This document shows, in pieces, positions 20,895 through 39,908 of a DNA stretch of 64,000 nucleotides (positions are counted from its first letter, which is position 1; every line of letters begins with the position of its first letter). The translations under genes and the position numbers were made by a program. The notes under the pieces are model-generated. The model was not told where the DNA came from, did no database searches, and saw only the letters and a list, made by a program, of their open reading frames with translations. The stretch comes from an uncultured delta proteobacterium (GTDB taxonomy: Bacteria; Desulfobacterota; Binatia; UBA9968): NCBI GenBank assembly GCA_963771465.1, contig CAVYTU010000015.1:992001-1056000 (forward strand), written 5' to 3'.

Positions 20895-20966
20895 CACTGC
20901 CCATAAGACGTAACACACGAAACTTGCGCATCCAACTCGCGAACCTGGTCCGTCGTCGTGAACCGC

Positions 20967-20993
20967 TTGACACGATTTTTCGCTTCGTAGTAC
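20967..20993. promoter_or_regulatory. Putative NikR operator overlapping the nikR -35
   Basis: TTGACAC-N13-GTAGTAC, similar to the site at 21448. Confidence 0.5.
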
Positions 20994-21014
20994 ATATTCG
21001 GCTGAGACAGGACC

Positions 21015-21431: not shown

Positions 21432-21447
21432 ATTTTTTTGCACTAAG

Positions 21448-21474
21448 GTAACACGAATTTTAAATTCATACTAT
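21448..21474. promoter_or_regulatory. Putative NikR operator upstream of the TonB-dependent receptor
   Basis: GTAACAC-GAATTTTAAATTC-ATACTAT pseudo-palindrome with a 13-nt AT-rich spacer. Confidence 0.55.
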
Positions 21475-21492
21475 TAGGAAGAATTTCGGGCT

Positions 21493-23538: not shown

Positions 23539-23633
23539 AGCGATGGCTCTCGGCGACGGCAATTTGATTTCCGTAGCGCGGCGAAATAAGAAACGAAGAT
23601 TACTTTGAATTTTGAAAGCTCACCCGATCAAAC

Positions 23634-24866
23634 ATGGATGAAACAGTAGTTAAACAAGACAGCACAATTCAACGCCAAACGATTTTCGCAATCGTCTGCG
23701 GCGGCCACTTTATCAACCACTTCCAGTCCGCCATGCTCGGCGTGATCTACCCGCTGATGATGAAAGAGGTCGGCATGAGCTATTTGGCGATCGCCTCGCT
23801 CGCCAGCGTCTACAACTCGCTCGGCAGCATCTTGCAGGCGTCCTACGGCTTCATCGTGCCCTATCTCCCTCGCGGTGTGATCCTCGGCATCGGCAATTGC
23901 CTGCTCGGACTCTCGGTCGTCGCCACGGGTTTCGCATCGACGTTCAATCATTTTTTCACCGCGCGCTTGATTGGCGGCATCGGCTCGAGTCCGCAGCACC
24001 CGGTTGGCTCGAGCATGCTCGCCAGCCATTTTGGTGCCGCCCGTGGCCGCGCCTTGGCGTTTCACACGACCGCAGGACAGATCGGTGGACTTTTAGCGCC
24101 GCTGTCAGCCGCGCTGTTGGTCACCTGGTTCGGTTGGCGTGGAGTCTTTTGGTTCATCGGCTCGTTGACCATCATCGTCGGGCTGATCTGTTTCGTGTTC
24201 CGCGATAGTCTTCGCAACGCGACGCAGAACAAACCGAAATCGCGCCTCGCGCCGGCCGGCTGGGAAGCCTATAAAACCTGCTTGAAGAATAAGAATATTA
24301 TGCTTGTCTCGCTGGTGTTCATGGCCGGCGCCGCCGGACGCGGCCAAGATATTAACGAGGTCTACATCATCCCCCATTTCGTCCATGATTTTCATTTGGA
24401 AATTACCCATGCCGCGTTTCTATTCACGCTCGTGCAAATCGGCAGCTTAACCGGACCGTTTGTTTGGGGCTGGATCTCAGATCGTTGCAATCGCAAGCTG
24501 GTTATCCAGGCTTCACTGTTAATGTCGGGCCTATGCACGCTCTGGCTCGCATGGCAAGAAACGGTCTCTGCCGGTCTGTTCGTCAATTTAGTGGTTTACG
24601 GCGCGGCCGTCACTTCGCGTCAGACACTTACCCAGGCTTTACTCGCCGACCTCGTCGGCGAAGAGCTCTACGACGCCGCCTTTAGCCTTTACTATTTTAT
24701 CGGTTTTATCTCGATCCCGTTTTGGACCGTGATCACCGGCGGCGTTATGACCAAGTACGGCTTCGGTCCGGCCTTCAGCGTGATTTCAATCTCGTATCTG
24801 CTCGCGATGAGTCTGCTGATGCTGCTGCGTATGCCGCGCCAGGAACAGAGCTTTGCTAATACTTGA
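23634..24866 (+). CDS. MFS transporter (FSR-like)
   Basis: About 12 hydrophobic segments, GWISDRCNRK loop motif, HFINH in TM1, QHP motif. Confidence 0.9.
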   Translation: MDETVVKQDSTIQRQTIFAIVCGGHFINHFQSAMLGVIYPLMMKEVGMSYLAIASLASVYNSLGSILQASYGFIVPYLPRGVILGIGNCLLGLSVVATGFASTFNHFFTARLIGGIGSSPQHPVGSSMLASHFGAARGRALAFHTTAGQIGGLLAPLSAALLVTWFGWRGVFWFIGSLTIIVGLICFVFRDSLRNATQNKPKSRLAPAGWEAYKTCLKNKNIMLVSLVFMAGAAGRGQDINEVYIIPHFVHDFHLEITHAAFLFTLVQIGSLTGPFVWGWISDRCNRKLVIQASLLMSGLCTLWLAWQETVSAGLFVNLVVYGAAVTSRQTLTQALLADLVGEELYDAAFSLYYFIGFISIPFWTVITGGVMTKYGFGPAFSVISISYLLAMSLLMLLRMPRQEQSFANT

Positions 24867-24887
24867 TGACCACGCCGAATATATCCT

Positions 24888-25664
24888 ATGAAAGAACAAT
24901 CCCTCGGCATTTCGCTAATTTCTTCGCTGCTCCTCCATGCTTTGGCCTTGGTCGGGGCCGCCGCATTAGTGCACCACGACAGTTTAACCAAACAAGAATT
25001 TTTCAGCGTAAAGCTAGTTGATATTCAATCATTGAGCGAAACCGCGGCAACGCCCGCTGAGAAGAAATTGCTAGCTATCGCCGAAGCGAAAAGGCCCAAC
25101 GAAATCAAACCTGCGCTGAAAAGCCAGAGTTCCGAACCTGAACCGCCAGCGACTCCCAGCGCCAAAGATGAGACCAAACCCGCCTTGCCGGCCAAGGCTG
25201 AAGCTCCCACGCCGCTCGCTACCGCTCGCGTCGAAGGCGGCGGCAGTGAAGCCGGCACAAGCGCGCTGTTTGGGCGCGGCGACGCTGGACTTCTGCCGGG
25301 CTCAGGCTCGGGTGGCGGTGGCAGCGCAGAAGTAGGATTGGGCCGCGGCTCAGGCGCGCCGGGATTTTCCTCTCAACAGGCAATCCTTAGAACCAACCGT
25401 GAAGCCAAACCGATTCAAACCGCACGCGCGATGTATCCAGCGATGGCGCTCCGCGCCGGCCTCGAAAGCGACGTGACCCTGAGAATCGAAGTCGATCCGC
25501 AAGGAACCGTCATTGAGGCGGAAATCATTAAAAGCGGCGGCGCCGGCTTCGACGACGAAGCGCTCAAAGCAGTAAAGCAATCGCGCTTCGAGCCGGCGCA
25601 AAAAGGTGGACAGACTGTGCCAGCCGAATTTACCTTCGTCTATCGTTTTCGTTTGCAGCGCTGA
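24888..25664 (+). CDS. tonB: Energy transducer TonB
   Basis: SSLLLH TM motif, Pro/Gly-rich linker, YP...FDDEALKAV...FEPA C-terminal domain. Confidence 0.9.
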   Translation: MKEQSLGISLISSLLLHALALVGAAALVHHDSLTKQEFFSVKLVDIQSLSETAATPAEKKLLAIAEAKRPNEIKPALKSQSSEPEPPATPSAKDETKPALPAKAEAPTPLATARVEGGGSEAGTSALFGRGDAGLLPGSGSGGGGSAEVGLGRGSGAPGFSSQQAILRTNREAKPIQTARAMYPAMALRAGLESDVTLRIEVDPQGTVIEAEIIKSGGAGFDDEALKAVKQSRFEPAQKGGQTVPAEFTFVYRFRLQR

Positions 25665-25854
25665 TTGAATCCGCCCAAGTCAGACAAATCCGAAACAGTC
25701 GCTTACTCGCTATTTCAATTTCAATTGCGGAATTCGGGTTAAATGATTCCAAGCTGGAAACGCATGGTAAAGCTCAAATCAATTCCCTTGTCGGGCTGTA
25801 GCGCTTTCGACCGCACCGAATTTATGGTGAAATAGCCGCCAAGGAGATTGTCGC

Positions 25855-26271
25855 ATGAACCATCGCTCACTAACGACCGCAGCCGCGTTGATCCTCGCCC
25901 TACCGTTTTCCGCCGCCGGACAACACGACCACGGCAAAAGCACGACGCCGGCGGCAAAACAATCGACGGCAAAGAAATCGCCGCCGGCGCTCGCACCCGC
26001 CGAAGGCGCGAGTATCAAGATACTCACGCCCACCAAGGGACAAACTTTCAAGGGCGACAAAGTAGAGATTAGTTACAAACTCACCAAGGGTAAACGCGGC
26101 CATCACGCGCACGCCTACATTGACGGCGAGCTCATGGGCATGTTTGAAAGTGACAAAGGCACGCTCAATGGCATTAAGTCCGGTAAGCATGTTTTGGAAT
26201 TGCGCGTGGTCGCCACCGACCACAGCACCGAACTGGACGCCAGCGACAAAGTCGAGTTCACGGTGAAATGA
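25855..26271 (+). CDS. Small exported His-containing Ig-like protein (DUF4399-like)
   Basis: Signal peptide, QHDH N-terminus, GHHAHAYIDG, GKHVLEL...DH motifs. Confidence 0.7.
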   Translation: MNHRSLTTAAALILALPFSAAGQHDHGKSTTPAAKQSTAKKSPPALAPAEGASIKILTPTKGQTFKGDKVEISYKLTKGKRGHHAHAYIDGELMGMFESDKGTLNGIKSGKHVLELRVVATDHSTELDASDKVEFTVK

Positions 26272-26338
26272 ACCCAAAGTCCGTGCTGCCCATAGAGCTT
26301 GCGCTGATGGGTTCGAACGACTAACATCGCAATCCACG

Positions 26339-26734
26339 ATGTACAGCGGCCAACACATATCAAGTTTCATGCGCGGCCTGTCCTTGCACGCCGCCGTCGC
26401 ATTGCTGCTTTTCTTGGTTCTCTCGCCACCCCATCGGGTGCACCATATTTTCGAGCAATTCACTGCGCCGCAATCGATCGGCCTTGCTAACGCAAGCGTT
26501 CACGATCATGGCGACAGCCACCACGAAAATCATTCACCGGTGCCAGCGCCCACTGCGCAGCCAAACGATTGCGCCGTACTCGCTGCAACACAAAACGCCC
26601 ATTCGCTGGCCGCCTGGTCTTTCGATTTGACAGTTTTCACCGCGGCAGTCGAACACACACAAATAAATTCGACCGAATCTGCGTTCTCATTCAACTTCGC
26701 ACCCCGCTCCCAACGCGCGCCGCCGCGCGTCTAA
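26339..26734 (+). CDS. DUF2946-like exported peptide with a C-terminal RAPP arrest motif
   Basis: Hydrophobic signal region, HRVHH, HDHGDSHHENH, single Cys, ends in PRSQRAPPRV*. Confidence 0.75.
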   Translation: MYSGQHISSFMRGLSLHAAVALLLFLVLSPPHRVHHIFEQFTAPQSIGLANASVHDHGDSHHENHSPVPAPTAQPNDCAVLAATQNAHSLAAWSFDLTVFTAAVEHTQINSTESAFSFNFAPRSQRAPPRV

Positions 26735-26870
26735 GCTTTCATTCGCAACTTGCATTCTTAACCCGGGCAAGCCCAGCGCGTTTTTCACTAAACCCGTTGG
26801 GCAACACGCCCGATGAGAAGTTGTTCCAGCGCGTCCAATGCGATGCGATTCCATGCGATGGAGGAAGGCG

Positions 26871-28190
26871 ATGATTGGAAAATTTAGCAGGGTATCACTG
26901 TTTATATTCTCATTGCAGGTTTATGGTTGCACCTCGGAGCTAATTCACCCCGCCACTGCCTCTCGCTCAGCGTCAGTGGAATTCACCGAGGAAGTCCGCC
27001 TCGGCGACAGCGAGCGAAATCCCTCTACACCATTTCTGCGTTACGCCCCCGATGGCCGCTTGTTTGCGGTCTGGACAGAAGAGCATGACAAACCTTGGCC
27101 CAATGGCCGCCCTACGGGTCACCAGCACGGCGGTGACCGCGCCGCATCGCCGCTGCGCAACGCGATGGTTGCCGCATCCGTCGACAGCGGTAAGACGTGG
27201 TCCGTGCCACGGCGTGTCAATAGCGCTGTCGAAGCGGTGCAAGGCGAAGAAAATGGTCCTAAGATCGCCGTCGGCGGCGGCAAGCGCGCTTACATCGTCT
27301 GGTCGATTCCCGGCGAGAAAGGCGACAAGACCCGCGCTAATATTCGCTTCGCCATGGATGACGGCAACGGCGGCTTCACGCCGGCGCAAACTTTGAATGA
27401 AGTCAAAGATGCCGGACGCTTTCCGATTATTGAAATGGCTCCGGACGGCAATCTTTTAATCGCTTGGATCGACCGGCGCGTGGACGGACCCAATCCGCGT
27501 CAGCTCTATCTCATGCGCCTGAATCCAAATGGCCGGGCGATGACGAAAAACTATCAAGTTGGCGAAGGACTTTGCGAGTGCTGCAAGCTGGGCATCACGT
27601 TCGCGGACGGCGGCAAGACGGTCTACATGGTTGACCGTGAGGTGGATGGCAAAAAGATTCGCAATCACGTACTGCGAAAGTCCACCGACGGCGGCACAAC
27701 TTTCAGCACGCCGGTGGAAATCAGCAATGACGGCTGGCAAGTTCCCTCCTGCCCGCATTCCGGTCCAAGTCTCGGCCGCGATAGTCGCGGTCAACTCCAC
27801 GTCAGTTGGTTTACCCTCGGCCGGTCGGAAGAAGAAGCAGGAATTTACTACAGTGTGTCGCGAGACGATGGCAAGAGCTTCTCGCCGCGCCAGCTCGTGC
27901 ACGCCAATAGCGCGCCGGAAACGCTCTACAACAACCTCGTCGTCGGGGACGACGACACGGTCTATTTGGCGTGGAGCAATCTCGATGGCAACAACAAAGC
28001 GCAAATCTATTTTCGCACGCTTGCAGCCGATGGCCGAACGTGGAGCGCGATCCAGCAAGTGAGCAACGCCAATGGGAATGCCAGCCGGCCAAGTCTGGCG
28101 CTACACCGTAACCAGCTCCATATCGCCTGGACTGAAATCGACGGCGAGGATTCGCGAGTGGTGATAAAAAACGCTACGGTCCAGCGATGA
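26871..28190 (+). CDS. BNR/Asp-box (sialidase-like) beta-propeller lipoprotein
   Basis: GGAGG RBS, VYGC lipobox, Asp boxes (SVDSGKTW, STDGGTTF, SRDDGKSF), CECC and CPH motifs. Confidence 0.85.
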   Translation: MIGKFSRVSLFIFSLQVYGCTSELIHPATASRSASVEFTEEVRLGDSERNPSTPFLRYAPDGRLFAVWTEEHDKPWPNGRPTGHQHGGDRAASPLRNAMVAASVDSGKTWSVPRRVNSAVEAVQGEENGPKIAVGGGKRAYIVWSIPGEKGDKTRANIRFAMDDGNGGFTPAQTLNEVKDAGRFPIIEMAPDGNLLIAWIDRRVDGPNPRQLYLMRLNPNGRAMTKNYQVGEGLCECCKLGITFADGGKTVYMVDREVDGKKIRNHVLRKSTDGGTTFSTPVEISNDGWQVPSCPHSGPSLGRDSRGQLHVSWFTLGRSEEEAGIYYSVSRDDGKSFSPRQLVHANSAPETLYNNLVVGDDDTVYLAWSNLDGNNKAQIYFRTLAADGRTWSAIQQVSNANGNASRPSLALHRNQLHIAWTEIDGEDSRVVIKNATVQR

Positions 28191-28732
28191 AGTTATCAAG
28201 AATGCACACTGGCTTATTCGCAGCACTTGTCAGCACCATGCTGACATCGGTGTGCGCATCATTGAGTTCAGCCCAACACTCGCACGAAATTAAGACTAAT
28301 GCCGCGCCTAGCGTAGGTGCGCCGGCCATCGCTTTTGATCTGAAATCTCTCGACGGCAAGTCGGTGGGATTAACAAGCTTCCGCGGCAAACCGTTGGTGC
28401 TCAATTTCTTCGCCAGCTGGTGCGATCCCTGCCGCGACGAGATACCGTTGATCAACGATCTCGCGTCCAAAGCAGCCAAAGACGGCTACAGCGTGCTTGG
28501 CATTGCCGTCGAAGACAGCCGCGCCGCGGTGAGCGAATTCGCCAAAGAAACCAACCTGGTTTTCCCCATCGCTCTGGACCTAAACAGCACTGTCAAACGC
28601 GCCTATCGAATCTTCGGCCCGCCGGCGACGTTTTTCGTCGACGGCCAAGGAATCATTCGCGACGTCGTTCTCGGCCCGATAACACCCGAGCGCGCCAAAG
28701 AAGCGATGAAAAGAGTGGGTGCTGTGCGTTAA
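28187..28732 (+). CDS. TlpA-family thiol-disulfide oxidoreductase
   Basis: LNFFASWCDPC, cis-Pro (GPP) motif, signal sequence; overlaps the upstream stop (ATGA). Confidence 0.92.
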   Translation: MKLSRMHTGLFAALVSTMLTSVCASLSSAQHSHEIKTNAAPSVGAPAIAFDLKSLDGKSVGLTSFRGKPLVLNFFASWCDPCRDEIPLINDLASKAAKDGYSVLGIAVEDSRAAVSEFAKETNLVFPIALDLNSTVKRAYRIFGPPATFFVDGQGIIRDVVLGPITPERAKEAMKRVGAVR

Positions 28733-28766
28733 AGTTTGTCTCAAATTTTAATCATTTACCCGAGCC

Positions 28767-29648
28767 ATGATTCGCTACCGAGTTCTTTTTTACAGCCTTT
28801 GCGTGAGCGCCGTTACCATCGCTGCATATCATTTCGGATTTAGTTTCGACTGGCGGACCAACGATGCCACTCAAACGGTTAAGGCGTACTTGCAAAAGAC
28901 TTACGCCCGCGACTTTAAAAATGCGTATCAATACCTATCGATCGCTGATCGACAGTCTCGCGGCGAAGCCAGTTATGTCGAGAGCCAGGATGCGTATAGC
29001 GGATTCGCGCTGGAAGCGGTAACAAAGCTCGCCAGTTTCATGCAAGTCTGGCCGATTGAACAGAGTCGAGACGACGAGCGCCGTCGGATCAAGGTCGGCT
29101 ACCGAGTTCCCGCACCGGCGGATCTTGCCGGTCTGCTATTGAACTGGGATGAAGCACAGCTCAACGCTCTGCCCCGTGATCGGCAGCAGCAAATCCTAGC
29201 CGAGATCGACGCGCGCAGAAAGGATAGCAAGCTGCTTATGATCGAAGGCCAGGAATCCCTTGAACTCAGGAAAGACGGAAAAGCCTGGAAGATTTTTCTC
29301 GATTGGGCGTCAGGAACGACGGTGAAGCTGAAAACCCAACTGCCTAAGTCCGGCGAGCTTGAAGTCCGTTTTGCCCAGACCGAAGTGATCGCCAAAAACG
29401 ACGAGTTGTTCCTGGTAAATTTGGTTATCAAGAACCGCGGTTCTCGCACTGTAACGTTTACCGTCGGTCACTTGATAGACCCAGATGCAATCGCAAACGA
29501 TCTAGAATTGGTTGAATGCGGCCTACTCACTCCCGTCACACTTCAGGCTGGGAGCACACAAGAATTTTCCATGGCGTATCTGCTCGGCAGCGCTGCGCGG
29601 CAAAACTACCGGGAGTTCAGCCTAACCTATGAGTTCAAGCTCAAGTAG
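28767..29648 (+). CDS. Membrane-anchored protein with divergent Cox11/CtaG-like C-terminal domain, paralog 1
   Basis: N-terminal anchor, YL..YARDF domain, C-terminus VGH...LELVECGLL...LTYEF. Confidence 0.75.
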   Translation: MIRYRVLFYSLCVSAVTIAAYHFGFSFDWRTNDATQTVKAYLQKTYARDFKNAYQYLSIADRQSRGEASYVESQDAYSGFALEAVTKLASFMQVWPIEQSRDDERRRIKVGYRVPAPADLAGLLLNWDEAQLNALPRDRQQQILAEIDARRKDSKLLMIEGQESLELRKDGKAWKIFLDWASGTTVKLKTQLPKSGELEVRFAQTEVIAKNDELFLVNLVIKNRGSRTVTFTVGHLIDPDAIANDLELVECGLLTPVTLQAGSTQEFSMAYLLGSAARQNYREFSLTYEFKLK

Positions 29649-29760
29649 CGATGTTCTAGCGAGCGGTCATGCTGGTGACCATTAGAAATTTATGGTTAAT
29701 TGCTGAAGTGCCCATGGTTCTTGGCGCGATCCGTCCCCGCGTCACTAAGAGGGCGATCGC

Positions 29761-30711
29761 ATGATGGAAACAATCCGCAACAAGATGCGTTCAGAGGAAT
29801 ATGCCGTGCCGCTAATCGCCGGCCTGAGAACCTGCACGTTACAAGCAGCTATCATTCTCATCGTATCGTTGTTCGGAAACTGCACCATGACCAGCACAGC
29901 TGCGCAGGCGCAAGCCCCGCGCGATCCGGCGCTCGTGCTGCAAACCTACCTGCGCGCTACCTATGCGCGCGATTTCGTTGAAGCGTACCGCATCATCTCG
30001 ACAGCCGACCGCAATGTTCGGGACCTGAACCGATACGTCCAGCAGCGCGGTCCGTTCGCCGGCTTCACCTTGGAAGCGGCAAAAAAGCTCAGCGAGTCGA
30101 TTCAAATCAAATTCATAGAGCGTAAGGACACGCCAAATCGCATGCAGGCGGTTATCAACTACAAAGTTCCCGACCCGAGCAAACTTTCACCCTTGTTGCT
30201 CAATTGGGATGCCCGCCGGCTGAACTCCTTGGTGCCAGATGAGCGCAAAAGAATTCTTGACACCATCGACAAGAAAAAACACGACGGCTCCTTGGAGATG
30301 AGCGAGGGCGAAGAAAAGTTGGAGCTCGTCAGAGAAAATGACGAGTGGCGGATATTTTTGAATTGGGCTGCCGGCGTCAAAATCCCGTTTCGAATGGATC
30401 TGTCAAAGTCGGCTGACTTGGAGGTGAGCCTTTCGAAAAACGAGATTGTCACGCAGCCGGGCGAGTTGTTTGAAATAATCCTGACTATCAAAAATCGAAC
30501 CAACCAACCGATCACCGCGCGCATCGGCCATGTTGTCGAGCCGAATAATCTCGCTGACTATCTGGATTTCGTCCAATGCGGTTTTCTTTTGCCCGTGACT
30601 CTTGGACCAGCCAGTGAAGAGCAATTTTCCGGAACCTATTTGCTTAGAGGCAGCCTTCCCGAAGGCGTGCGCCAGCTCAATCTGACCTACGATTTTCGCC
30701 TGCTGAAATAA
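29761..30711 (+). CDS. Divergent Cox11/CtaG-like protein, paralog 2
   Basis: YLRATYARDF; QPGE...KN...IGHVVEP..LADYLDFVQCGFL...LTYDF. Confidence 0.8.
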   Translation: MMETIRNKMRSEEYAVPLIAGLRTCTLQAAIILIVSLFGNCTMTSTAAQAQAPRDPALVLQTYLRATYARDFVEAYRIISTADRNVRDLNRYVQQRGPFAGFTLEAAKKLSESIQIKFIERKDTPNRMQAVINYKVPDPSKLSPLLLNWDARRLNSLVPDERKRILDTIDKKKHDGSLEMSEGEEKLELVRENDEWRIFLNWAAGVKIPFRMDLSKSADLEVSLSKNEIVTQPGELFEIILTIKNRTNQPITARIGHVVEPNNLADYLDFVQCGFLLPVTLGPASEEQFSGTYLLRGSLPEGVRQLNLTYDFRLLK

Positions 30712-30818
30712 AAGCATGATCAGCTTGGCGCCGCTAGCAGCGCAGTTTTTTTTATGTTTAATTGATTCAACGGAAACGTTTTCCATTTTGCGCATTGGAT
30801 GAATGGGGAGGTAATTCT

Positions 30819-31379
30819 ATGATCCGCCGCAAGTTGCTTGTCGTTCTGCTCACACTCGCCGTCGCTAATATCGCCGCGCTGAATGCTTTGCGCGCGCAGG
30901 ACACGATCTCCGAGAACAAAAAAATTGTCCCGTATGTCCCGTCGCCGCAGTTCGTCGTCGATAAGATGATTGAACTCGCCGGTGTTAAGCCCGGAGATTT
31001 AGTCTTTGACCTCGGTTCCGGCGACGGCCGCATCGTTGTCACCGCCGCGAAGAAGGGCGCCAAAGCGGTCGGCTTTGAGATCGATGGCGATCTCGTCGGC
31101 GAATCGCGGGCGAATATAAAGAAAGCCGGCGTCGAAGCGAACGCGGAAATTCGCAACCAAGACATACTCACCGTCGATTTTTCCGACGCCACCGTCGTCA
31201 CCATGTATCTGCTGCCCGACGTCAACTTGCAACTCAAACCGAAACTGCTGAGTCAGTTGAAACCCGGCGCGCGCATCGTTTCCCACTCCTTCGACATGGG
31301 CGACTGGAAGCCCGACAAAGTCGAACGGATCGAAGGACGAACCATTTTTCTTTGGACCATCCCGGCCAAGGGACGTTAA
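30819..31379 (+). CDS. Class I SAM-dependent methyltransferase with a signal peptide (FAM173/aKMT-like)
   Basis: VPYVPSP, DLGSGDGR, VVTMYL, LKPGARIVSHSF motifs; GGAGG RBS. Confidence 0.88.
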   Translation: MIRRKLLVVLLTLAVANIAALNALRAQDTISENKKIVPYVPSPQFVVDKMIELAGVKPGDLVFDLGSGDGRIVVTAAKKGAKAVGFEIDGDLVGESRANIKKAGVEANAEIRNQDILTVDFSDATVVTMYLLPDVNLQLKPKLLSQLKPGARIVSHSFDMGDWKPDKVERIEGRTIFLWTIPAKGR

Positions 31380-31432
31380 AACGTGCGGCGCGTTGAAGCG
31401 ATCGCGCGCCATCCGCGTCAAACCATCTGCCG

Positions 31433-32320
31433 ATGATCAAGAAAATTATTCTTGCGTCACTGAGCTGCCTCCTGCTCACTTTGCCGCTGCTCTATTGGCT
31501 TAACCGGATCGCTGCCTTGCCGCAGCACGAACCGATTCAGACGCTGACTCAGTACGTCCGCTTTCTCTACGCGCGTGACTTTCGCCAGGCCTACCGATTC
31601 ATCTCTGTGGAAGATCAGCGGCTTAAAAAATCGCACGACTACGTGCGCGAACGCCAGCCGTTTACCGGCTTTGCTCTGGATGTGGCGCGCAGGCTCGCCG
31701 GCCTGATCGAAGTCCGACCTTTGTCGAGCGCAGCGGACGGCGAACGCAACCGGCTCACGGTCGCCATGAAACTGCCGGATGCCAACAGTGTTGCTCCCTT
31801 GCTGCATGACTGGGATGACAAACGGCTCAACACTTTGTCGGCGACGGAGCGCAAGCATATTCTAACCACCATCGACAGTTGGGCCGACGCTAAGAAACTG
31901 CCAATGATCGAAGGCAAAGAAAGTTTCGTCATGATCAAAGAAGGTTCCAAGTGGAAAGTCTTTGTCGACTGGGCCGCCGGAGCACAGGTACAGTTTGCGG
32001 CCGCGCTGCCGGCGGGAAATGAAATCAGCGCCGAACCGACAACCAAAGAGACGGTCGCGCGCTCCGGCGATTCGTTTACGATCGGCTTCAAAGTCGCCAA
32101 CCCAACGAGCAAAGAGATCGTGACGCGCATCGTTCATCGCGTCGAACCCAAAGAGCTGGCGCCCTATTTGGATTTGGTCGAGTGCGCGCTCTTACTGCCG
32201 GTGCGAGTGGGGCCGGGTGAAGAGCAGCTGTTCAACAGCACCTATCTCGTCCGCGGCGACTTACCCGACGGTGCGAAAACGCTCAAAGTCACTTATGAGT
32301 TCAAGGTTGAGAGTAACTGA
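31433..32320 (+). CDS. Divergent Cox11/CtaG-like protein, paralog 3
   Basis: YVRFLYARDF; IVHRVEPKELAPYLDLVECALL...VTYEF. Confidence 0.8.
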   Translation: MIKKIILASLSCLLLTLPLLYWLNRIAALPQHEPIQTLTQYVRFLYARDFRQAYRFISVEDQRLKKSHDYVRERQPFTGFALDVARRLAGLIEVRPLSSAADGERNRLTVAMKLPDANSVAPLLHDWDDKRLNTLSATERKHILTTIDSWADAKKLPMIEGKESFVMIKEGSKWKVFVDWAAGAQVQFAAALPAGNEISAEPTTKETVARSGDSFTIGFKVANPTSKEIVTRIVHRVEPKELAPYLDLVECALLLPVRVGPGEEQLFNSTYLVRGDLPDGAKTLKVTYEFKVESN

Positions 32321-32915
32321 ACAGCTTGGCGCCGCGATGCTCGCGGTCGCTTTGCTACCATCGACAGCTCGGTCGCATATCCCGATCCCGCCCAAACAGC
32401 CAAGCGAAATCGGCCGGCGCGTCGTCAAAACCGCTGTGCCCGATTTCAAACTGACCGATCAGAACGGTAAACAATTCCAACTCAGTAGCAAACGGGGAAA
32501 TCTAGTTCTCACGACGTTTATCTTCACCACCTGCCCCGACGTATGTCCGCTATTTACCGCCAAGTTTGCCGCGATCCAGCGCGCCTTGGACGACAGAAAA
32601 TTCAAAGACTATTGGTTGCTCAGCATCACCACCGACCCGGAGCATGACAACGCAGCGGCATTGAAGGATTACGCCAACCGGTTCAAAGCCGACTCAGCCC
32701 ACTGGTCGTTTCTCACCGGCACGCGGTCGGATTTGACAAAAACGTGGAAAGCCTTTGGCGTCAACGTCACCAGGACCGAAGCTGGACAGGTTTTTCACAC
32801 TGCACTCACCACTCTCATCGATCGGCGCGGCAACCGCCGAGTCGATTATTACGGTGACAAATGGCTCGACCAAGAAGTGCTCAAGGATATCCAGTGGCTG
32901 AGCTCGCAAAAATGA
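32295..32915 (+). CDS. SCO1/SenC family protein
   Basis: FTTCPDVCP, TDPEHD, VFHT; start uncertain (32295 or 32337). Confidence 0.9.
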   Translation: MSSRLRVTEQLGAAMLAVALLPSTARSHIPIPPKQPSEIGRRVVKTAVPDFKLTDQNGKQFQLSSKRGNLVLTTFIFTTCPDVCPLFTAKFAAIQRALDDRKFKDYWLLSITTDPEHDNAAALKDYANRFKADSAHWSFLTGTRSDLTKTWKAFGVNVTRTEAGQVFHTALTTLIDRRGNRRVDYYGDKWLDQEVLKDIQWLSSQK

Positions 32916-33478
32916 TCCCGCGCCGAGCGTTAACGCTTTTTCTTACACTGCTATTCACTCATTGCCTTGTAACACCGGCAAGCGCAGCCCAGCGCGAGCA
33001 AGGCGTGCTGGAGATTCAAATCAAAGATCATCGCGACGCGATCGGCGATTTCGCGAAGCTAAATATCACCATCGAGAAATTCTCAATTAGCCCGAAACCA
33101 GCGTTAAAGATTTGGCAACCCAACTGGAAAGAAATCAGCTCCACATCCTCACCGGTTGACTTGACCCAATATGTAGGAAACAAAACTGCAAGAATATTTC
33201 GCGGCACGATTGATGCCGGATCGTTTGATGCATTTCACCTAAAGATCAAAACAATCGACGGACTCTTGAAGAAAAAACAGCGCTCCGTACGGGTGAAAGA
33301 CAAGACCGGTCCGGTTAAACTTTCTTTCGACATCAAACCAAAGGGCGAAACCATTTTGATTCTCGACTTCGTGGTATCGGATATGTCCGATCACCCACCG
33401 CTCGGTTATGAACTCGGAATACGGGGGCTCGAACTTTTTACCAACGGCAAGCTCGTTGAGAAAATCCCGCCGGGGTAA
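32912..33478 (+). CDS. Exported DUF4382-like protein
   Basis: Signal peptide, LEIQIKD...LNITI...ILDF pattern; overlaps the SCO stop (ATGA). Confidence 0.65.
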   Translation: MIPRRALTLFLTLLFTHCLVTPASAAQREQGVLEIQIKDHRDAIGDFAKLNITIEKFSISPKPALKIWQPNWKEISSTSSPVDLTQYVGNKTARIFRGTIDAGSFDAFHLKIKTIDGLLKKKQRSVRVKDKTGPVKLSFDIKPKGETILILDFVVSDMSDHPPLGYELGIRGLELFTNGKLVEKIPPG

Positions 33479-33700
33479 ATCATCAATCCAGAATGAAGGT
33501 TCTTTTCTGTTTTATCTTCTCCTTTTTTCCTTCCTCCTCATTCGCTTCTGGCAATATTGACCTTTACTGCCTACCCATCACACGCTAGCGTGAGAGGATC
33601 GCACCAGCATCGTTGTCAGGAGTTCATTCGCCGATCGACCTCGGTTGACTGGTTTCTCCACCGCTCGTATCTTGTAGCTTACTGAAGCTCGGCCGGCTCA

Positions 33701-35245
33701 ATGACAGTGTACAAAAATCCCGAGAACATCTCCGAATCGGCAACGCCATGGTTACTGCTCACATTGCTGTGTCTCGGGGGAGGCTTCCTTCGGTTCTACA
33801 ACTTCTGGAATTCCCCGATGTGGGTTGATGAATACGGGAGTTGGTGGATTGTATCAGCTCCTACTTGGAGTGAAGTGACCGAGCGAGCCCTGAAAACTCA
33901 GGGTCAGTCCCCTTTTTATTATGTTCTGGTCAAATTTTTCACAAATTTTTTGGGCGAAGGCCCTTTTCAGTTGCGCCTACCTTCTGTCATTTTTGGTATC
34001 GCTAGCCTCGCCCTCGTGTACCCCATAGCAATTCGAACATTTCAACACCGACAAGTAGCGCTCACGGCAGTTGTGGTATTTAGTCTTAGCGAGCGTCTCA
34101 TATGGTATTCTCAAAATGCCAGGCCCTACGCTCTTGCACTTCTTTTAACAATGCTCTCGTTTTTGTTTTTTCACTCCACCGCACATGCCAAGTCGATAAG
34201 CCACAAAATCGGATACGTGCTAGCGACCTCATTACTGATCTATGCACATTTTGTGTTCTGCTTTATCGCTATTATTCAGGTTATCTACCTAATATTCACA
34301 AAAGGTTGGCGCGAGAGCTTCTCTAAGACCTGGCTCCTTCCATTTCTCTGTATTGCATTTCTTTGCCTACCTCTTACCAGCCAATTGATCAGTTTATTTA
34401 AGCGGCGAGCTACTCTAGATTGGGTGCCCTACGTAGATCGACCAAATATAGTTGTTCAGTCTTTTTTGATTCTATTTGACCTATGTCACCCCTGGATATT
34501 TCTGGTCACGATTGCTGCCCTATTTTCCGTCGGCTTTAGACGCAATGAGCCACACGAGTTGAGCCGACGAGAAGGTCTTCGGCTTTTTTCGTGGTGGTTT
34601 ATTTTCCCCTTCGTCGTTTTTAGTACAATTCCGTCGTTGCTCGGGATAACACTTTTTCACCCCCGATATTTACTTTTCACCTATCCCGCAGCGTTTTTCC
34701 TGTTAGCTTGGTTCATGAACCATGTAAAACCAACTGATTGGCGCAGATGGATCCCAACTCTGGCATTTGCGATGTCGAGCACTATCTTTATCTTGATTCC
34801 TTCGCTCGGTAGGTCCGGTGCCTTCAGTTCCGGTTCGCGATGGGATTGGACCGACGCAGTGCGGGTGTTGGCGACATCAGCCAAACCCACAGATCTGATT
34901 ATATATCGTACTGGGTTAGTTGAGGCTGATTTGTTTGCCGCCGGTTCTCCAAAATCCTATCTACAATCCTATGTTGGCTGGCCGATAATCGCCAACCTAC
35001 CAACAGGTCACTCGTACGAGCTCGTCAGTTTACCTTTTCGATTGGGCGATCACACCCGCGCGTATTTTGTCTCCGTCGCGAAACTGGCAAGTCATTACAA
35101 TCGTGTATGGGTCATAGGTGAGGGAGAATTAACAGCACTCTTTGTCAAAACAATGATCTCAGACTATCGATTTCGCGGCGTACATAACTCCTCCCATGAG
35201 AAAGTGCAAGTCACGTTGTTGGAAGGAACTTTACTCGGTCCTTAG
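33701..35245 (+). CDS. GT-C fold glycosyltransferase (GT39/ArnT/PMT-like)
   Basis: WVDE, SPFYY, LRLPS, YSQNARPYAL motifs; multiple TM segments; more AT-rich than its neighbours. Confidence 0.85.
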   Translation: MTVYKNPENISESATPWLLLTLLCLGGGFLRFYNFWNSPMWVDEYGSWWIVSAPTWSEVTERALKTQGQSPFYYVLVKFFTNFLGEGPFQLRLPSVIFGIASLALVYPIAIRTFQHRQVALTAVVVFSLSERLIWYSQNARPYALALLLTMLSFLFFHSTAHAKSISHKIGYVLATSLLIYAHFVFCFIAIIQVIYLIFTKGWRESFSKTWLLPFLCIAFLCLPLTSQLISLFKRRATLDWVPYVDRPNIVVQSFLILFDLCHPWIFLVTIAALFSVGFRRNEPHELSRREGLRLFSWWFIFPFVVFSTIPSLLGITLFHPRYLLFTYPAAFFLLAWFMNHVKPTDWRRWIPTLAFAMSSTIFILIPSLGRSGAFSSGSRWDWTDAVRVLATSAKPTDLIIYRTGLVEADLFAAGSPKSYLQSYVGWPIIANLPTGHSYELVSLPFRLGDHTRAYFVSVAKLASHYNRVWVIGEGELTALFVKTMISDYRFRGVHNSSHEKVQVTLLEGTLLGP

Positions 35246-35495
35246 GCACATCAATGCATAATTTTCCATCACAATTCTCTGCTTCAAGATGACCTAAAAA
35301 AGAGCAGCGATTACAAACAACGCGTTTCCAGAAACAAGGGATGACACCATGGAAACTCCGATGTCGACCTGTAAAGCAATTTAAGCAATAAGCTTGGCGC
35401 GTGCTCGAGAACGTTGAAAGTTACCTAGAGCGAATGGGCATCATTCTCCGAGAGATTGTGCTTGCTACAAAAGTGGTACCCAATCGAGAGCCCGT

Positions 35496-35507
35496 CTCTA
35501 CACAAAC
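35496..35507 (+). repeat. 12-mer CTCTACACAAAC, copy 1 of 3
   Basis: Identical at 35496, 35934 and 37147. Confidence 0.8.
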
Positions 35508-35549
35508 CGTAAAATTCTAGAATGCCTTCTGTTCAGATTTTTCCCGATC

Positions 35550-35733
35550 ATGGATGCTTCAAATAACCTATTTCTATTATTCAGCGCCGCGTCGTCGTCC
35601 TGGAGATCGTGCTCGGAACGGCGCTTCGGCTGAAGTTTGAACCACAACCTCTGCTTGGGCCGTGGAATGACAACGGCCCGGACGGGCTAAAACAGTACGG
35701 TGCGGTGCCAGATTTTAGCTTGATGGAGCGGCG
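35550..35733 (+). pseudogene. Degenerate duplicate of the 5' end of the SCO gene at 37204
   Basis: Shares GTCGTCGTCCTGG.GATCGTGCTCGG and GTGGAATGACAACGGCCCGGACGGGCTAAA with 37204-37385; has indels and is truncated. Confidence 0.85.
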
Positions 35734-35744
35734 CGTTGCATGCA

Positions 35745-35930
35745 ATTGAGAATATTTCCCAACGTGTAAACCCCCGATAAGTGCCAATCCGAGAATGTAC
35801 CCACTCTGAAGGTTTGCCCAAAGGACCAGGAGAATTGGAAACAGGGAGTAGTGGAATTTCTTACTCTCGGTTTGATGGGACTCGATAAATTGTCTAGCGA
35901 GCCAGTGAACAAAGAAGTCAGCGGTGGCTT
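35745..35930 (-). pseudogene. Fragment of a GT-C-like membrane protein gene
   Basis: Translates FPILLVLWANLQSGYILGLALIG, resembling the WANLHGG motif; no start or end context. Confidence 0.45.
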
Positions 35931-35933
35931 GAA

Positions 35934-35945
35934 CTCTACACAAAC
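35934..35945 (+). repeat. 12-mer CTCTACACAAAC, copy 2
   Basis: Exact copy. Confidence 0.8.
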
Positions 35946-36012
35946 GGTACGCTAATCGAATTTCCGTCGATATATGTTTTGCAAGAACAGAACGATCGAC
36001 CAGTGCGCACAG

Positions 36013-36984
36013 CTAGTTTTTTACAACGCGAATAATCATGATGGGATTATAGGATTCATCGCCAAACGCTAAACTCCATTCACTCGAACAGTTCAGACAT
36101 TGATCACCACGTGAAGTGAACCAAAGCAGCACTTCATGATATGAGACCGAAGTACAAGCATCGCTATCGTTAACCCAGTATTGCTCATAGTTCGCGTCTA
36201 ACTTGATAAAGTGCAGACGTGATGGCCCACCGCCAAACCGAGAGCCCAGAGAGCGCAAAAAGCGCACCTGGCGGGATTGAAGGTTGTAGAACGCTGAGGA
36301 GTCGGCGATCAAGGTCGTCGCTTTCTTGAGCTTGCCCCAAATGTTGAAATCGCTGTAGGGCCGCACACGATAGCCTTGTGCGGCGTAACGATCGACGTCG
36401 TTGCCGACGAGAAGAAGAATATGTCCACCCGGTTTAACGACACGTCGCATTTCCAGGAGCGCTTTTTCAGGGTTGGGAATATGTTCCAGCACCCAGATCG
36501 ACCACAGCGCGTCAAATGAATTATCTGGAAACGGCATATTGGTCGCCGACGCTTCGACAAATGGTTTATGAAAAAAATGACGCGCGGTTGCCGAAATATC
36601 CAGAGCCGTGTAATCATCGACGATATCTTGGAGAAGGCCGCTTCCAGCGCCAACTTCCAAAACTTTTTTGTCTTTCAATCCAAACTTCGCAACAAACTCA
36701 GCGACGGTTGCCGGAATCTTCGCCCTGAAAGCTGCATCCCGCGCAATGTCGATATAGAATTTATCCTGTGCCGATACGGGCACAGTCGAGGATGGTGGGA
36801 TTGTGTCCTTGGTCAGCTTGGATTCGCTGGAATAGGCCTGCTCATAAAAGCGACGAGGCTCCGAGTTCAACGATTCATCACCTTGTGGATCGATACTCCA
36901 GGGAAAGGTTATCGCGGTTGCGATGGCACTGGCGAGTACTAGGCATGTATAGCCAATTATCAAAAAACACCTGATTGGTTTCAT
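36013..36984 (-). CDS. Class I SAM-dependent methyltransferase with N-terminal TM
   Basis: VLEVGAGSG, PFPDNSFDA, VLEHIPNP, RVVKPGG motifs. Confidence 0.88.
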   Translation of the reverse strand: MKPIRCFLIIGYTCLVLASAIATAITFPWSIDPQGDESLNSEPRRFYEQAYSSESKLTKDTIPPSSTVPVSAQDKFYIDIARDAAFRAKIPATVAEFVAKFGLKDKKVLEVGAGSGLLQDIVDDYTALDISATARHFFHKPFVEASATNMPFPDNSFDALWSIWVLEHIPNPEKALLEMRRVVKPGGHILLLVGNDVDRYAAQGYRVRPYSDFNIWGKLKKATTLIADSSAFYNLQSRQVRFLRSLGSRFGGGPSRLHFIKLDANYEQYWVNDSDACTSVSYHEVLLWFTSRGDQCLNCSSEWSLAFGDESYNPIMIIRVVKN

Positions 36985-37146
36985 ATAATCGTCACCGCGG
37001 GTTGACTAATCTTGCGCGAAAAAGCTGTAGCAGAGATTAGATCTCGCATCCCTCGGATCATCGTACTGAATTCTAACAGATGATGAGCCACGACGTCAGC
37101 AAAAATACTCCCACCGGAGAACTAGACACAGCAATCTTTCCATCGA

Positions 37147-37158
37147 CTCTACACAAAC
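37147..37158 (+). repeat. 12-mer CTCTACACAAAC, copy 3
   Basis: Exact copy upstream of the intact SCO gene. Confidence 0.8.
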
Positions 37159-37203
37159 GCTTAATTTCCCGATAAAATCCCGTCTGGCTAATCTGCTCCG
37201 CTC

Positions 37204-37848
37204 ATGAACGATTCAAAACGTTTCTTGTTATTCAGCACCGCGGTCGTCGTCCTGGGGATCGTGCTCGGCACGGCGCTTTGGTTGAAGCTCGAACCGCAGC
37301 GTCAACTCGGGGCGTGGAATGACAACGGCCCGGACGGGCTAAAGCAGTACGGCGCGGTGCCGGAATTTTCCTTGATGGAGCGGAGCGGCGCCGGCGTCGA
37401 TCTTGCCCAGTTGCGTGGCAAGATCTGGGTTGCTGACTTTATCTACACGACTTGCACCGACACCTGTCCGTTGCAAACCGGCATGATGGCAAGGTTGCAA
37501 GAAGAGTACGCCTCCAAGCCCGATGTCCATTTAGTTTCGGTCACCGTCGATCCCGAACGTGACACGCCCCAGACTTTGTCGCTCTACGCCGCAAAGCATG
37601 GAGCGGATGCCAAGCGCTGGTTATTTTTAACCGGACAACGAGATCGCATCATGAATCTGATTCGCGACGGTTTTCATTTAAGCGTGGCAACCTTGCCCAA
37701 CAGCGCCGAGCCAACCGGCATGATCCCGCACAGCCCGCGCTTTGTTCTGATCGACAAAGAGGCGCGTATCCGTGGCTATTATGACAGCCGCGAACTCGAA
37801 GCGTTTGTCCGGCTGAAAAATGACATTGACACGTTATTGAAAAGTTAA
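37204..37848 (+). CDS. SCO1/SenC family protein
   Basis: N-terminal TM, YTTCTDTCP, VDPERDT, IPHS. Confidence 0.93.
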   Translation: MNDSKRFLLFSTAVVVLGIVLGTALWLKLEPQRQLGAWNDNGPDGLKQYGAVPEFSLMERSGAGVDLAQLRGKIWVADFIYTTCTDTCPLQTGMMARLQEEYASKPDVHLVSVTVDPERDTPQTLSLYAAKHGADAKRWLFLTGQRDRIMNLIRDGFHLSVATLPNSAEPTGMIPHSPRFVLIDKEARIRGYYDSRELEAFVRLKNDIDTLLKS

Positions 37849-37863: not shown

Positions 37864-38739
37864 ATGGCGCAAGAGACCAGAAGCAAGAAAGGTAAGCAAC
37901 CGGCGGCAAAAGGATTATTACGCGCCGGACCGAATTGGCCGCTGTTTATTCTTGCTCTGCTCGGCATGGTGTTGTCCGGCTACCTCACTTTTACCGCTTG
38001 GCAAGGCAGGCTCGTCGCCTTTTGCACCGAAGGCGCCGGCTGCGACCTCGTGCTTAACAGCCGTTGGTCGACGCTGTTCGGCATGCCGACATCTTTTTGG
38101 GGTTTTCTCACCTATGGTTTGCTCGCCGCGGTGGCATGGAACCGTTATGCCGATAATCAGTGGCGCTGGGCTTGGGTCATTTCGCTCTTCGGCTTGCTGT
38201 TCAGTTCCTATTTGACAGCTATTTCATTTTTTGAGCTCAAGGCCGCTTGTCCCTATTGCCTCGCGTCGCTCGGCATTATGGCGGCGATCTTCGTCATGAC
38301 AACCCTGCAACGTCCGGCGAATCTACCCAAATTTTCTTGGGGGCCATGGCTCGGCAAATCACTCGGCGCGGCGGCCGCAGTGATCATCGCGCTTCATCTC
38401 TATTTCGCCGGGTATTGGGGCGACGCGCCGGGACCGGAAGATCCCTGGGTCAGGAATCTGGCTGAACATTTGACCCGGTCAGACGTCAAATTCTACGGCG
38501 CCTCATGGTGCCCGCATTGCCAAGATCAGAAAAAATTGTTCGGCAGCTCTGTGAACCGAATACCATATATCGAATGTAGCCCAGGCGGGCCCAATACGCC
38601 CCAAGCAGCGGAATGTAAGACAAAGGGTATTCAGACCTATCCCACTTGGATCGTTAACGGTCAGCGGCATACCGGCGTGTTACCCCTCGATACCTTGGCC
38701 CAACTGAGCAAATTCAACTACCAGGGAGGAAAGCCGTAA
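37864..38739 (+). CDS. VKOR fused to a C-terminal thioredoxin-like domain
   Basis: FCTEGAGC..VLNS, CPYC, then FYGASWCPHC and YPTW. Confidence 0.92.
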   Translation: MAQETRSKKGKQPAAKGLLRAGPNWPLFILALLGMVLSGYLTFTAWQGRLVAFCTEGAGCDLVLNSRWSTLFGMPTSFWGFLTYGLLAAVAWNRYADNQWRWAWVISLFGLLFSSYLTAISFFELKAACPYCLASLGIMAAIFVMTTLQRPANLPKFSWGPWLGKSLGAAAAVIIALHLYFAGYWGDAPGPEDPWVRNLAEHLTRSDVKFYGASWCPHCQDQKKLFGSSVNRIPYIECSPGGPNTPQAAECKTKGIQTYPTWIVNGQRHTGVLPLDTLAQLSKFNYQGGKP

Positions 38740-39206
38740 TGCACGTGTCGTCGGGGAAACAAATATTAATCTTCGCTCTCGTCCTGAGTTGGAGTGCGAT
38801 GGCAATCCAGACAAATGCCAATGCCGATCCGTCGAAGTATCCGGAGTTTGCCCAGCAAACTCTGCCGGAAAACGTTACGCCGGCTTTTATCAACGTCGAC
38901 GAATTGGTCGAACTGGTGAAGGCCGGCACCAAGCCGATGATCATCGATGTGCGCACGGACGAAGAGTTCAAAGAAGCGCATATCCTAGGCGCCATGTCCG
39001 CGCCGCTCGCGGAATTCAAAAATTTCGTCAAAGACATTCCTCGCGATCGGCCGGTCGCGCTCTATTGAGCCTGTCCCCATCACCTGGCCAGTTTGGCCTA
39101 TGGCATTCTTTATGAAAACGGTTACCGCAACATGAAAGTGCTCGACGAAGGCATCAAAGGTTGGCACGAAAAACGCTACCCGATGGCCGGAACCCTGTTC
39201 CGTTAA
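38739..39206 (+). CDS. Exported rhodanese-like protein, probable selenoprotein (UGA at 39066-39068)
   Basis: IIDVR..EF...HI.GA; the frame continues past TGA as Y-U-ACPHH...GYRNMKVLDEGIKGW to TAA 39206, completing the domain; hairpin downstream of the UGA. Confidence 0.85.
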
Positions 39207-39215
39207 GCGTGACCG

Positions 39216-39908
39216 ATGGCCGGCACAGACGCTGTTATCCTTTTGAGCGGCGGCATCGATTCCACTACTGCCGCGGCCATCGCTATACAACAAGGCTATC
39301 AACTGCACGCTCTGACCTTTTGCTATGGCCAACGCCACCAACGAGAAATCGAGTCGGCCAAGCGCGTTGCAAGTTTTCTACCGGCCAAAACGCACCGCGT
39401 CATCGAATTCGATCTGAGGTCGATCGGCGGCTCCGCGCTGACCGATCAAATCGCGGTACCCAAAGGACGGAATGACCAGGAGATCGCCGACGGCATTCCG
39501 ATCACTTACGTGCCGGCACGCAACACGATTTTTTTATCCTTCGGTTTGGCGCTGGCGGAGCGCGTCGGCGCGGCGGATATTTTTTTTGGCGCCAACCAAC
39601 TCGACTACAGCGGCTATCCGGACTGCCGCGAAGAATATATCGCGGCTTTCGAAAACATGGCCAACCTTGCCACCCAAGCCGGAGTCGAAGGCAAGACCCG
39701 ACTAAAAATCCACGCGCCGTTGCTCCAGATGACTAAAGCGGACATCATTAACAAAGGCTTGGAACTCGGCCTCGATTACGGCCTCACGTGGAGCTGCTAC
39801 GATCCGGGAAATAATGGAATAGCCTGCGGCCTGTGCGACAGTTGCCGGCTGCGGCTCAAGGGATTTCAAGCAGCCGGCCGCGTCGATCCGATCGCTTACG
39901 CGCGCTAA
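39216..39908 (+). CDS. queC: 7-cyano-7-deazaguanine synthase
   Basis: SGGIDS, YGQRH, YVPARN, YPDCR, TWSCY...CGLCDSC. Confidence 0.96.
   Translation: MAGTDAVILLSGGIDSTTAAAIAIQQGYQLHALTFCYGQRHQREIESAKRVASFLPAKTHRVIEFDLRSIGGSALTDQIAVPKGRNDQEIADGIPITYVPARNTIFLSFGLALAERVGAADIFFGANQLDYSGYPDCREEYIAAFENMANLATQAGVEGKTRLKIHAPLLQMTKADIINKGLELGLDYGLTWSCYDPGNNGIACGLCDSCRLRLKGFQAAGRVDPIAYAR

Follow-up and report, generated by a model that had tools for sequence, protein, structure and literature searches.

A widespread rhodanese-fold protein of uncultured soil bacteria, cut short by gene callers, whose in-frame TGA almost certainly encodes selenocysteine

Reading frame and rhodanese domain

The stretch of DNA analysed here, called the window, comprises 64,000 nucleotides (positions 992,001 to 1,056,000) of contig CAVYTU010000015.1, assembly GCA_963771465.1, from an uncultured delta proteobacterium of the Binatia, and the positions below are those of the window. 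An open reading frame (ORF) is annotated at 38739..39068 on the forward strand, which closes at the TGA of 39066-39068, its codon 110. Past this TGA the frame stays open for 45 codons up to the TAA at 39204-39206, giving a product of 155 amino acids, and it ends 9 nt before queC, as a preliminary description of the window had stated and as was read directly from the sequence. Taken as a whole, 38739-39206 is very probably the gene of a rhodanese-fold selenoprotein in which the UGA is decoded as selenocysteine (Sec, U); that selenium is actually inserted is what we infer from the DNA. The ATG of the gene shares letters with the TAA stop (TAATG) of the gene upstream, which encodes a fusion of VKOR and a thioredoxin-like domain (VKOR-Trx).

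The rhodanese domain was recognized across the TGA. Pfam Rhodanese (PF00581) covered residues 53-144 with 59.8 bits against a cut-off of 22.2 (3.8e-16), and in alignments to solved rhodaneses codon 110 fell on the catalytic Cys, for example on that of 'vyCrtggr' in 3tp9. Both results agreed with the preliminary description, which had placed the UGA at the catalytic position of a rhodanese, in Y-U-A-C-P-H-H. The AlphaFold (AF2) model of the read-through protein, built with 35 sequences, reached a predicted local distance difference test (pLDDT) score of 86.6 and showed in order a strand at 106-109, the active-site loop and a helix from residue 115. Only rhodanese domains were returned by Foldseek with this model, 3gk5 having a root-mean-square deviation (rmsd) of 1.6 over 102 columns, and the probability versus rhodanese structures was 1.00, with template modelling (TM) scores up to 0.88 by target.

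The shorter frame is the one found in databases. Among the 120 best database homologues, 119 were of 111 amino acids or fewer, which shows that gene calling consistently truncates the family at this point; the six short ones fetched all ended in '…LY', and one NCBI entry of 108 amino acids, named 'rhodanese-like domain-containing protein', illustrates the shortened annotation. Since the annotation is cut at codon 109, protein databases lack the active site and one third of the domain. The presence of 108-110-residue proteins throughout the annotation would agree with the TGA being a real stop, which would leave a 109-residue rhodanese fragment or a pseudogene with something else conserved downstream; this is highly improbable, because the downstream codons complete the rhodanese domain and because of the selection and conservation given in the next section. 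The remaining database homologue (P0022, 154 amino acids) carries W at this position, its gene having been called with TGA=Trp.

The protein had also been described as exported, with an N-terminal signal peptide. Sequence features were consistent with this: D30 is preceded by a conserved A-x-A, and residues 1-29 also include K7 and a hydrophobic core, while in the alignments A29, D30 and P31 were near-invariant and residues 1-28 variable. A helix was placed at 7-21 in the AF2 model, with low pLDDT there. The rhodanese selenoprotein would thus be exported by a signal peptide predicted from the sequence and the model helix. Features of the gene and of its surroundings are collected in Table 1.

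Table 1. Coordinates of the rhodanese gene, its parts and other genes of the window
Feature	Position	Strand	Evidence and remarks
Full gene of the probable selenoprotein, rhodanese-fold, Sec at codon 110	38739..39206	+	TGA=U translation, Pfam, AF2 model, Foldseek; 155 codons + TAA
Shine-Dalgarno-like GGGAGGA	38724..38730	+	8 nt 5' of ATG 38739; read from sequence
Predicted Sec-type signal peptide, residues 1-29, cleavage after A-N-A	38739..38825	+	Sequence features; mature N-terminus DPSKYPEFAQQ
UGA, probable selenocysteine U110, in the rhodanese catalytic-Cys column	39066..39068	+	TGA conservation, Cys homologues, 3tp9 alignment
Active-site loop U110-A-C112-P-H-H115	39066..39083	+	TGA=U translation, homologue alignment; AF2 helix begins at residue 115
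45 post-UGA codons completing the rhodanese domain	39069..39203	+	dN/dS 0.085, codons +13..+42
Candidate selenocysteine insertion sequence (SECIS) element, CC. GGCCA GUU UGGCC ... GG	39083..39103	+	Stem pairing, fold, frozen synonymous sites, bSECIS model
VKOR and thioredoxin-like domain fusion, W-C-P-H-C	37864..38739	+	Pfam VKOR 1.4e-26; upstream partner gene
SCO1/SenC copper-chaperone/thiol-disulfide protein, first of the conserved trio	37204..37848	+	Pfam SCO1-SenC 1.1e-27
queC	39216..39908	+	Pfam QueC 1.7e-73; 9 nt after the rhodanese TAA
SCO1 + cytochrome c	19864-21023	minus	Window ORF scan
NikR	21015-21428		Window ORF scan
AhpC/TSA protein	28187-28729		Window ORF scan
Two weak Cox11-like proteins	29761-30708 and 31433-32317		Window ORF scan
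SCO1	32217-32912		Window ORF scan

Conservation of the TGA codon

TGA was found at the site in the window and in 14/14 genome loci (15/15 together), and in 94/94 related loci once 80 metagenome contigs were included. The loci were searched with back-translated patterns, and the pattern covering the TGA site assumed Cys; the loci were therefore found through the other five patterns, and the search had no bias toward TGA. The gene was present in 30 of the 41 related genomes sampled, with one TGA in every match. Within the genus it was carried by 23 of 24 sampled genomes, a count which includes one unpublished genome (G005), and the exception was a genome only 65% complete. The TGA also stood in all six divergent homologues (6/6; 40-52% identity), which belong to two further families of the order and share the motif L-Y-U-x-C-P-R-H, and the TGA form F-Y-U-A-C-P-H-F was observed in G076, a genome from another family of the phylum. 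A sample of 401 genomes of the phylum gave three matches, namely the gene itself, one Sec form and one distant cytochrome-fused Cys form. Down to 40% identity, no Cys variant of the window family was seen. The family is common: nearly every genome sampled in the genus has it, and it occurs in other families of the order, in another family of the phylum and in the metagenome contigs. It represents a widespread soil-bacterial selenoprotein truncated by gene callers, in which the in-frame TGA almost certainly encodes selenocysteine.

Pairs of Cys and UGA at this column were found as well. Seven of the 15 representatives fetched (P0163, P0177, P0192, P0198, P0219, P0223 and P0265) had Cys in the TGA column, and in P0163 (46% identity) the Cys of V-Y-C-A-C-P-H-H-L-S-S-L-A-Y-G was aligned to the window UGA. 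An Atlas look-up with P0163 returned generic rhodanese clusters and nothing else. That more than 120 independent sequences, with identities as low as 40%, retain a stop at the catalytic codon, with Cys there in homologues, is a signature of Sec and not of decay, which argues against a real stop. The same is true of the codons downstream: in the window and the 14 genome loci the ratio of nonsynonymous to synonymous substitution (dN/dS) was 0.085 for codons +13..+42 after the TGA (97 pairs), indicating purifying selection, and 0.13 for the 80 codons before it (81 pairs), so that the 45 in-frame codons downstream are under stronger purifying selection than those upstream.

It is hardly conceivable that the TGA is a sequencing error, or that TGA is reassigned genome-wide, to Trp for instance. 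The gene call of P0022 with W at the site would fit such a reassignment, but TGA was present in every independent assembly examined. The site was covered by contigs of three RNA libraries (from three studies) and of one independent DNA run with no differing letter, hence with no TGC or TGT in these contigs. TGA was also the commonest stop of long frames in the genome (669/1688); as a normal stop it rules out genome-wide reassignment, and the full Sec machinery was present in the genome.

The ultra-conserved stretch of the candidate SECIS element is bordered by 39063 and 39104, and contigs of two independent runs (X4, DNA, and X6, an RNA library) end or start at these positions. The likely cause is that the assembly graph branches where co-occurring strains have this stretch in common.

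Hairpin after the UGA and decoding machinery

The UGA is followed by a hairpin with an apical stem of 5 bp (39086-39090/39094-39098) and a GUU loop (39091-39093) 22 nt after the UGA, which folds at -8.3 kcal/mol (39083-39103). Among 60 distinct sequences the apical stem was paired in 99.7% of cells, with the consensus GGCCA-GUY-UGGCC, and its closing pair was G-C in 48, G-U in 11 and A-U in 1. A 2-bp CC/GG extension was paired in 100% of cells and hardly varied. The preliminary description had proposed a SECIS-like hairpin composed of this apical stem-loop and a lower CCAU/AUGG stem; the apical part stood, with its distance of 22 nt from the UGA and its conservation, while the lower stem was discarded, as three of its four pairs were broken in 6-9 of the 60 distinct sequences and the CC/GG extension fitted better. 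The longer outer helix enclosing the UGA that was given by RNAalifold had no covariation and was not adopted either. The hairpin was present in 5/6 divergent loci.

In the bacterial SECIS (bSECIS) model, as set out in a 2026 review (PMC13188914), the loop has 3-9 nt with G at its first or second place, the stem has 4-16 bp, the spacing is 16-37 nt and the minimum free energy (MFE) is -7.5 or lower. The window hairpin agreed with all four, having a 3-nt loop of G then U, a 5-bp stem, a spacing of 22 nt and -8.3 kcal/mol. Its loop, stem and folding energy place it at the small end of the bacterial SECIS consensus, and a longer lower stem was unsupported.

Synonymous sites in the hairpin region were frozen. 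The normalised codon entropy of codons +4..+12, which encode H-H-L-A-S-L-A-Y-G, was 0.21 versus 0.71 at the other 60 conserved codons in 78 distinct sequences (Mann-Whitney p=7e-6), and no other 9-codon window of the gene had a value as low. As a separate observation, the two codons before the UGA (39060-39065, CTC TAT, L-Y) had normalised entropies of 0.21 and 0.24 with almost no synonymous variation, an indication that the sequence just 5' of the Sec codon is constrained as well.

Several results weigh against a SECIS function of the hairpin, or against the selenoprotein reading more generally. The stability of the hairpin was not above that of dinucleotide shuffles (z +1.5 for 71 nt; z -0.84 for the 25-nt fold, with 37/200 shuffles equally good), and a thermodynamically unremarkable hairpin would be expected if the TGA were a real stop. 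Covariation was non-significant, with 100-109 of 500 shuffles reaching the observed score and one double change (A-U) in the stem. In the divergent locus L119 the stem contains a U-C mismatch and the loop is GGU, and one stem pair is broken in L058. Rfam gave no relevant match around the gene, the lone match being a chance sRNA inside queC (E 0.077). The hairpin-encoded peptide L-A-S-L-A was conserved also in the Cys homologues, so part of the nucleotide conservation is at the protein level, and no DNA of a close Cys homologue that could serve as a no-SECIS control was found in the 401-genome phylum sample, which held one distant Cys form. The contigs of the RNA libraries attest presence and do not prove transcription. 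Selenium in the protein is predicted from the DNA, and the function considered below is proposed from gene order and motif.

The genes for decoding UGA as Sec, selA, selB, selC and selD, were all present in the genome. The tRNA-Sec was detected with 76.7 bits and the anticodon tca, and selA, selB and selD form a cluster on contig 14. The selD gene (L012, G000:C14:200711-201637) itself has an in-frame TGA, in A-A-G-U-A-A-K-L-G, followed by the hairpin GCGCAA-GUU-UUGCGC, whose GUU loop matches that of the rhodanese hairpin. In the mechanism proposed here, SelB and Sec-tRNA(Sec) would be recruited by the rhodanese hairpin at the UGA and Sec would be inserted at residue 110; translation would then proceed past the UGA to give a 155-residue precursor, from which the predicted Sec-type signal peptide would direct a mature protein of 126 residues to the periplasm.

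At least five further rhodanese-domain genes of this genome have one in-frame TGA in or beside the active-site loop, each with a hairpin after it. They are located at G000:C3:14470-14814, C14:230146-230463, C19:34204-34521, C15:847492-847734 and C13:191094-191402 (loci L108-L110), and their motifs are F-C-A-U-P-D-E, L-Y-C-S-U-P-N-E (in two genes), F-T-U-G-T-G-A-Q-S (at G000:C15:847492) and Y-C-H-D-L-Q-U. In the three C-x-U rhodanese genes of the genome, the loops contain G and the distances are similar to that of the window hairpin.

Known rhodaneses, neighbouring genes and possible function

Rhodanese selenoproteins as such are already known. A 'Rhodanese-related sulfurtransferase' stands in the selenoprotein list of the Sargasso Sea (PMC1088965), three rhodanese selenoprotein forms are given in a 2022 review (PMC9312934), and five are tabulated in the 2026 review as UxxS, UxxG, CxU (NF041203), UxxG and TsoB UxxxxU (PMC13188914). 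The window motif U-A-C-P matched none of these five tabulated forms, and U-x-C occurred in none of them. No model reached its cut-off in the NCBIfam scan: the best was NF041203 rhodanese_LYCAU (56.7 bits versus 115), while TsoB (NF045694) gave 22.5 versus 805 and the PspE models gave 30.1 versus 102 (NF007627) and 28.0 versus 126.3 (TIGR02981). Literature searches on selenocysteine rhodaneses with VKOR or SCO1, and on selenocysteine in Binatia, turned up nothing on the family among the titles and abstracts listed, and the papers listed for selenoproteins with VKOR all dealt with mammalian topics; a prior listing in the supplements of large surveys is possible. As a selenoprotein gene it is unannotated, and the Sec placement, the predicted export and the VKOR/SCO1 linkage are new.

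NF041203, the 'rhodanese-related (seleno)protein', resembles the window protein in its single rhodanese domain, in a Sec/Cys pair one residue apart and in a loop that follows L-Y. Sec and Cys are swapped between the two, Sec occupying the catalytic column of the window protein and Cys following at +2, and the loop goes on as P-H-H-L-A-S in the window protein and as P-N-E-A-S-S in the NF041203 form. The same reversed order was observed in a paralogue of the same genome (L-Y-C-S-U-P), which is 35% identical to the window protein and aligns without gaps through the motif. Before the domain, the two LYCS-U-PNE paralogues have a long hydrophobic stretch and a basic run, which looks like a putative membrane anchor, whereas the window protein has a predicted A-x-A signal peptide. 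The Sec placement of the window protein, unlisted for rhodaneses in the catalogue of the 2026 review (PMC13188914), is thus the mirror image of the C-x-U form that the genome also encodes, and the two forms are a natural pair for asking why Sec takes one or the other position of C-x-C.

Forms 1, 2 and 4 (UxxS and UxxG) also have Sec for the catalytic Cys, the genome's own F-T-U-G-T-G-A-Q-S gene being such a case, but they are without the +2 Cys and have a glycine-rich canonical loop, which sets them apart by their printed motifs. The Cys-type C-[AG]-C-P-H-H rhodaneses (P0163, P0198, P0219, P0223, P0265 and locus L124) are alike in the loop and the following helix (…YCACPHHLSSLAYG…) at 46% identity or less; they differ in having Cys for Sec, and P0223 and L124 are fused to a cytochrome c-like domain. 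PspE of Escherichia coli is likewise a small periplasmic single-domain rhodanese, with one Cys and with neither Sec nor C-x-C. Together with DsbC it can partly substitute for DsbA/DsbB, and VKOR is the equivalent of DsbB (PMC5403849).

U110 and C112 are the sole Sec and Cys of the mature protein. Across the wider family the conserved core of the loop is U/C-x-C-P, and both His are variable: position 114 is H, with R in the six divergent Sec members, and position 115 is H in the window protein and F in G076, with Y, E or A found there in Cys homologues. The preliminary description had called the protein a periplasmic UxC seleno-sulfurtransferase. A UxC selenoprotein was supported; 'sulfurtransferase' was an assumption. 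The family keeps the U/C-x-C-P core and not the His. A classical sulfur or selenium transferase would be a genuine selenoprotein in which Sec110 carries sulfane sulfur (Se-S-) from thiosulfate or a periplasmic persulfide, with C112 as an accessory residue. The rhodanese fold, in which Sec takes precisely the place of the persulfide carrier, a loop of six residues as in sulfurtransferases (given that the helix begins at 115), the basic residue at 114 and the cataloguing of other rhodanese selenoproteins as 'rhodanese-related sulfurtransferase' (PMC1088965, PMC13188914) would be in its favour, but the canonical C-R-x-G-x-[RT] rhodanese loop is absent, the near-invariant Cys at +2 could resolve any adduct, and the conserved neighbours are disulfide and copper-site proteins instead of sulfur-oxidation genes. 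A transferase is for these reasons considered unlikely.

The neighbourhood bore out the claimed coupling to VKOR-Trx, seen in the TAATG overlap and in the order of genes elsewhere. VKOR-Trx lies immediately 5' of the rhodanese gene in 14/14 close genome loci and in 4/6 divergent loci, SCO1 taking that place in the remaining 2/6, and SCO1 precedes VKOR-Trx in 13/13 loci possessing the flank. The motifs C-P-Y-C and W-C-P-H-C of VKOR-Trx were invariant in 13/13 aligned sequences. In L119 a Cox11-domain protein lies beside the pair. The metal cluster of the preliminary description was likewise confirmed at window 19864-37848, which holds three SCO1 genes (including that of the trio), two weak Cox11-like genes, NikR and genes of the TonB system (a TonB-dependent receptor and TonB); other genes there encode a major facilitator superfamily (MFS) protein, a PMT_2 glycosyltransferase and a DUF4382 protein. 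The window ORFs scanned (to 52.7 kb) included no heme-copper oxidase subunits.

With such neighbours, the genuine selenoprotein might be a periplasmic carrier of Cu(I), with Sec110, Cys112 and both His as copper ligands and SCO1/Cox11 as exchange partners. The soft and imidazole ligands of U-x-C-P-H-H, the operon with SCO1, the further SCO1 and Cox11-like genes of the window and the Cox11-domain neighbour in L119 would fit this, but both His are variable as described above, and the most constant neighbour, VKOR-Trx, is no copper protein. We rate a copper carrier as less probable even than a transferase.

A redox function is proposed tentatively. Disulfides in C-x-C motifs are strained and oxidising. 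The conserved U/C-x-C-P core with variable His speaks for sulfur transfer no more than for a selenenylsulfide redox couple, and the redox couple is favoured since U110 and C112 are the only redox residues, the context is VKOR-Trx and SCO1, and a paralogue with swapped C-S-U exists in the genome; PspE with DsbC in place of DsbA/DsbB is a precedent for a rhodanese in envelope disulfide chemistry. The protein may accordingly act as a selenenylsulfide/selenol-thiol redox couple with VKOR-Trx as its putative partner, a function proposed from gene order and motif and rated somewhat below even odds. Sec would sit at the catalytic position of the rhodanese cradle with the lone Cys two residues on (U110-A-C112-P-H-H), the U110/C112 selenenylsulfide would exchange electrons with the quinone-linked disulfide module of VKOR-Trx, and the exchange would serve the maturation of cysteine and copper sites in the envelope, with SCO1 and Cox11 as clients.

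A more specific proposal, which is doubtful, would make the protein a sixth, uncatalogued rhodanese selenoprotein form, with obligate Sec in an exported U-x-C-P protein that acts as a dedicated client or relay of the VKOR-Trx module for the maturation of SCO1/Cox11 copper sites. If this were true, selenium would be an integral part of how abundant uncultured soil bacteria form disulfides and copper centres in their envelope. The fixed pairing with VKOR-Trx and SCO1 connects selenium with quinone-driven disulfide formation and with copper-site assembly in a way that can be tested.

The queC gene followed the rhodanese gene in at least 11 of 14 close loci and in 0/6 divergent loci. A functional link was rejected because the adjacency is confined to the close genus, and queC is probably a mere neighbour, functionally unlinked.

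In a related metagenome-assembled genome (L021:2119-3321), the VKOR-Trx ORF continues stop-free and in frame into the rhodanese ORF, giving 401 amino acids up to the TGA. Either the two genes are naturally fused here or a stop has been lost; the topology of a fusion would be odd, with the signal peptide turned into a membrane span.

A complete rRNA operon (5S, 23S, two tRNAs and 16S) was located on the minus strand at window 8793-14294.

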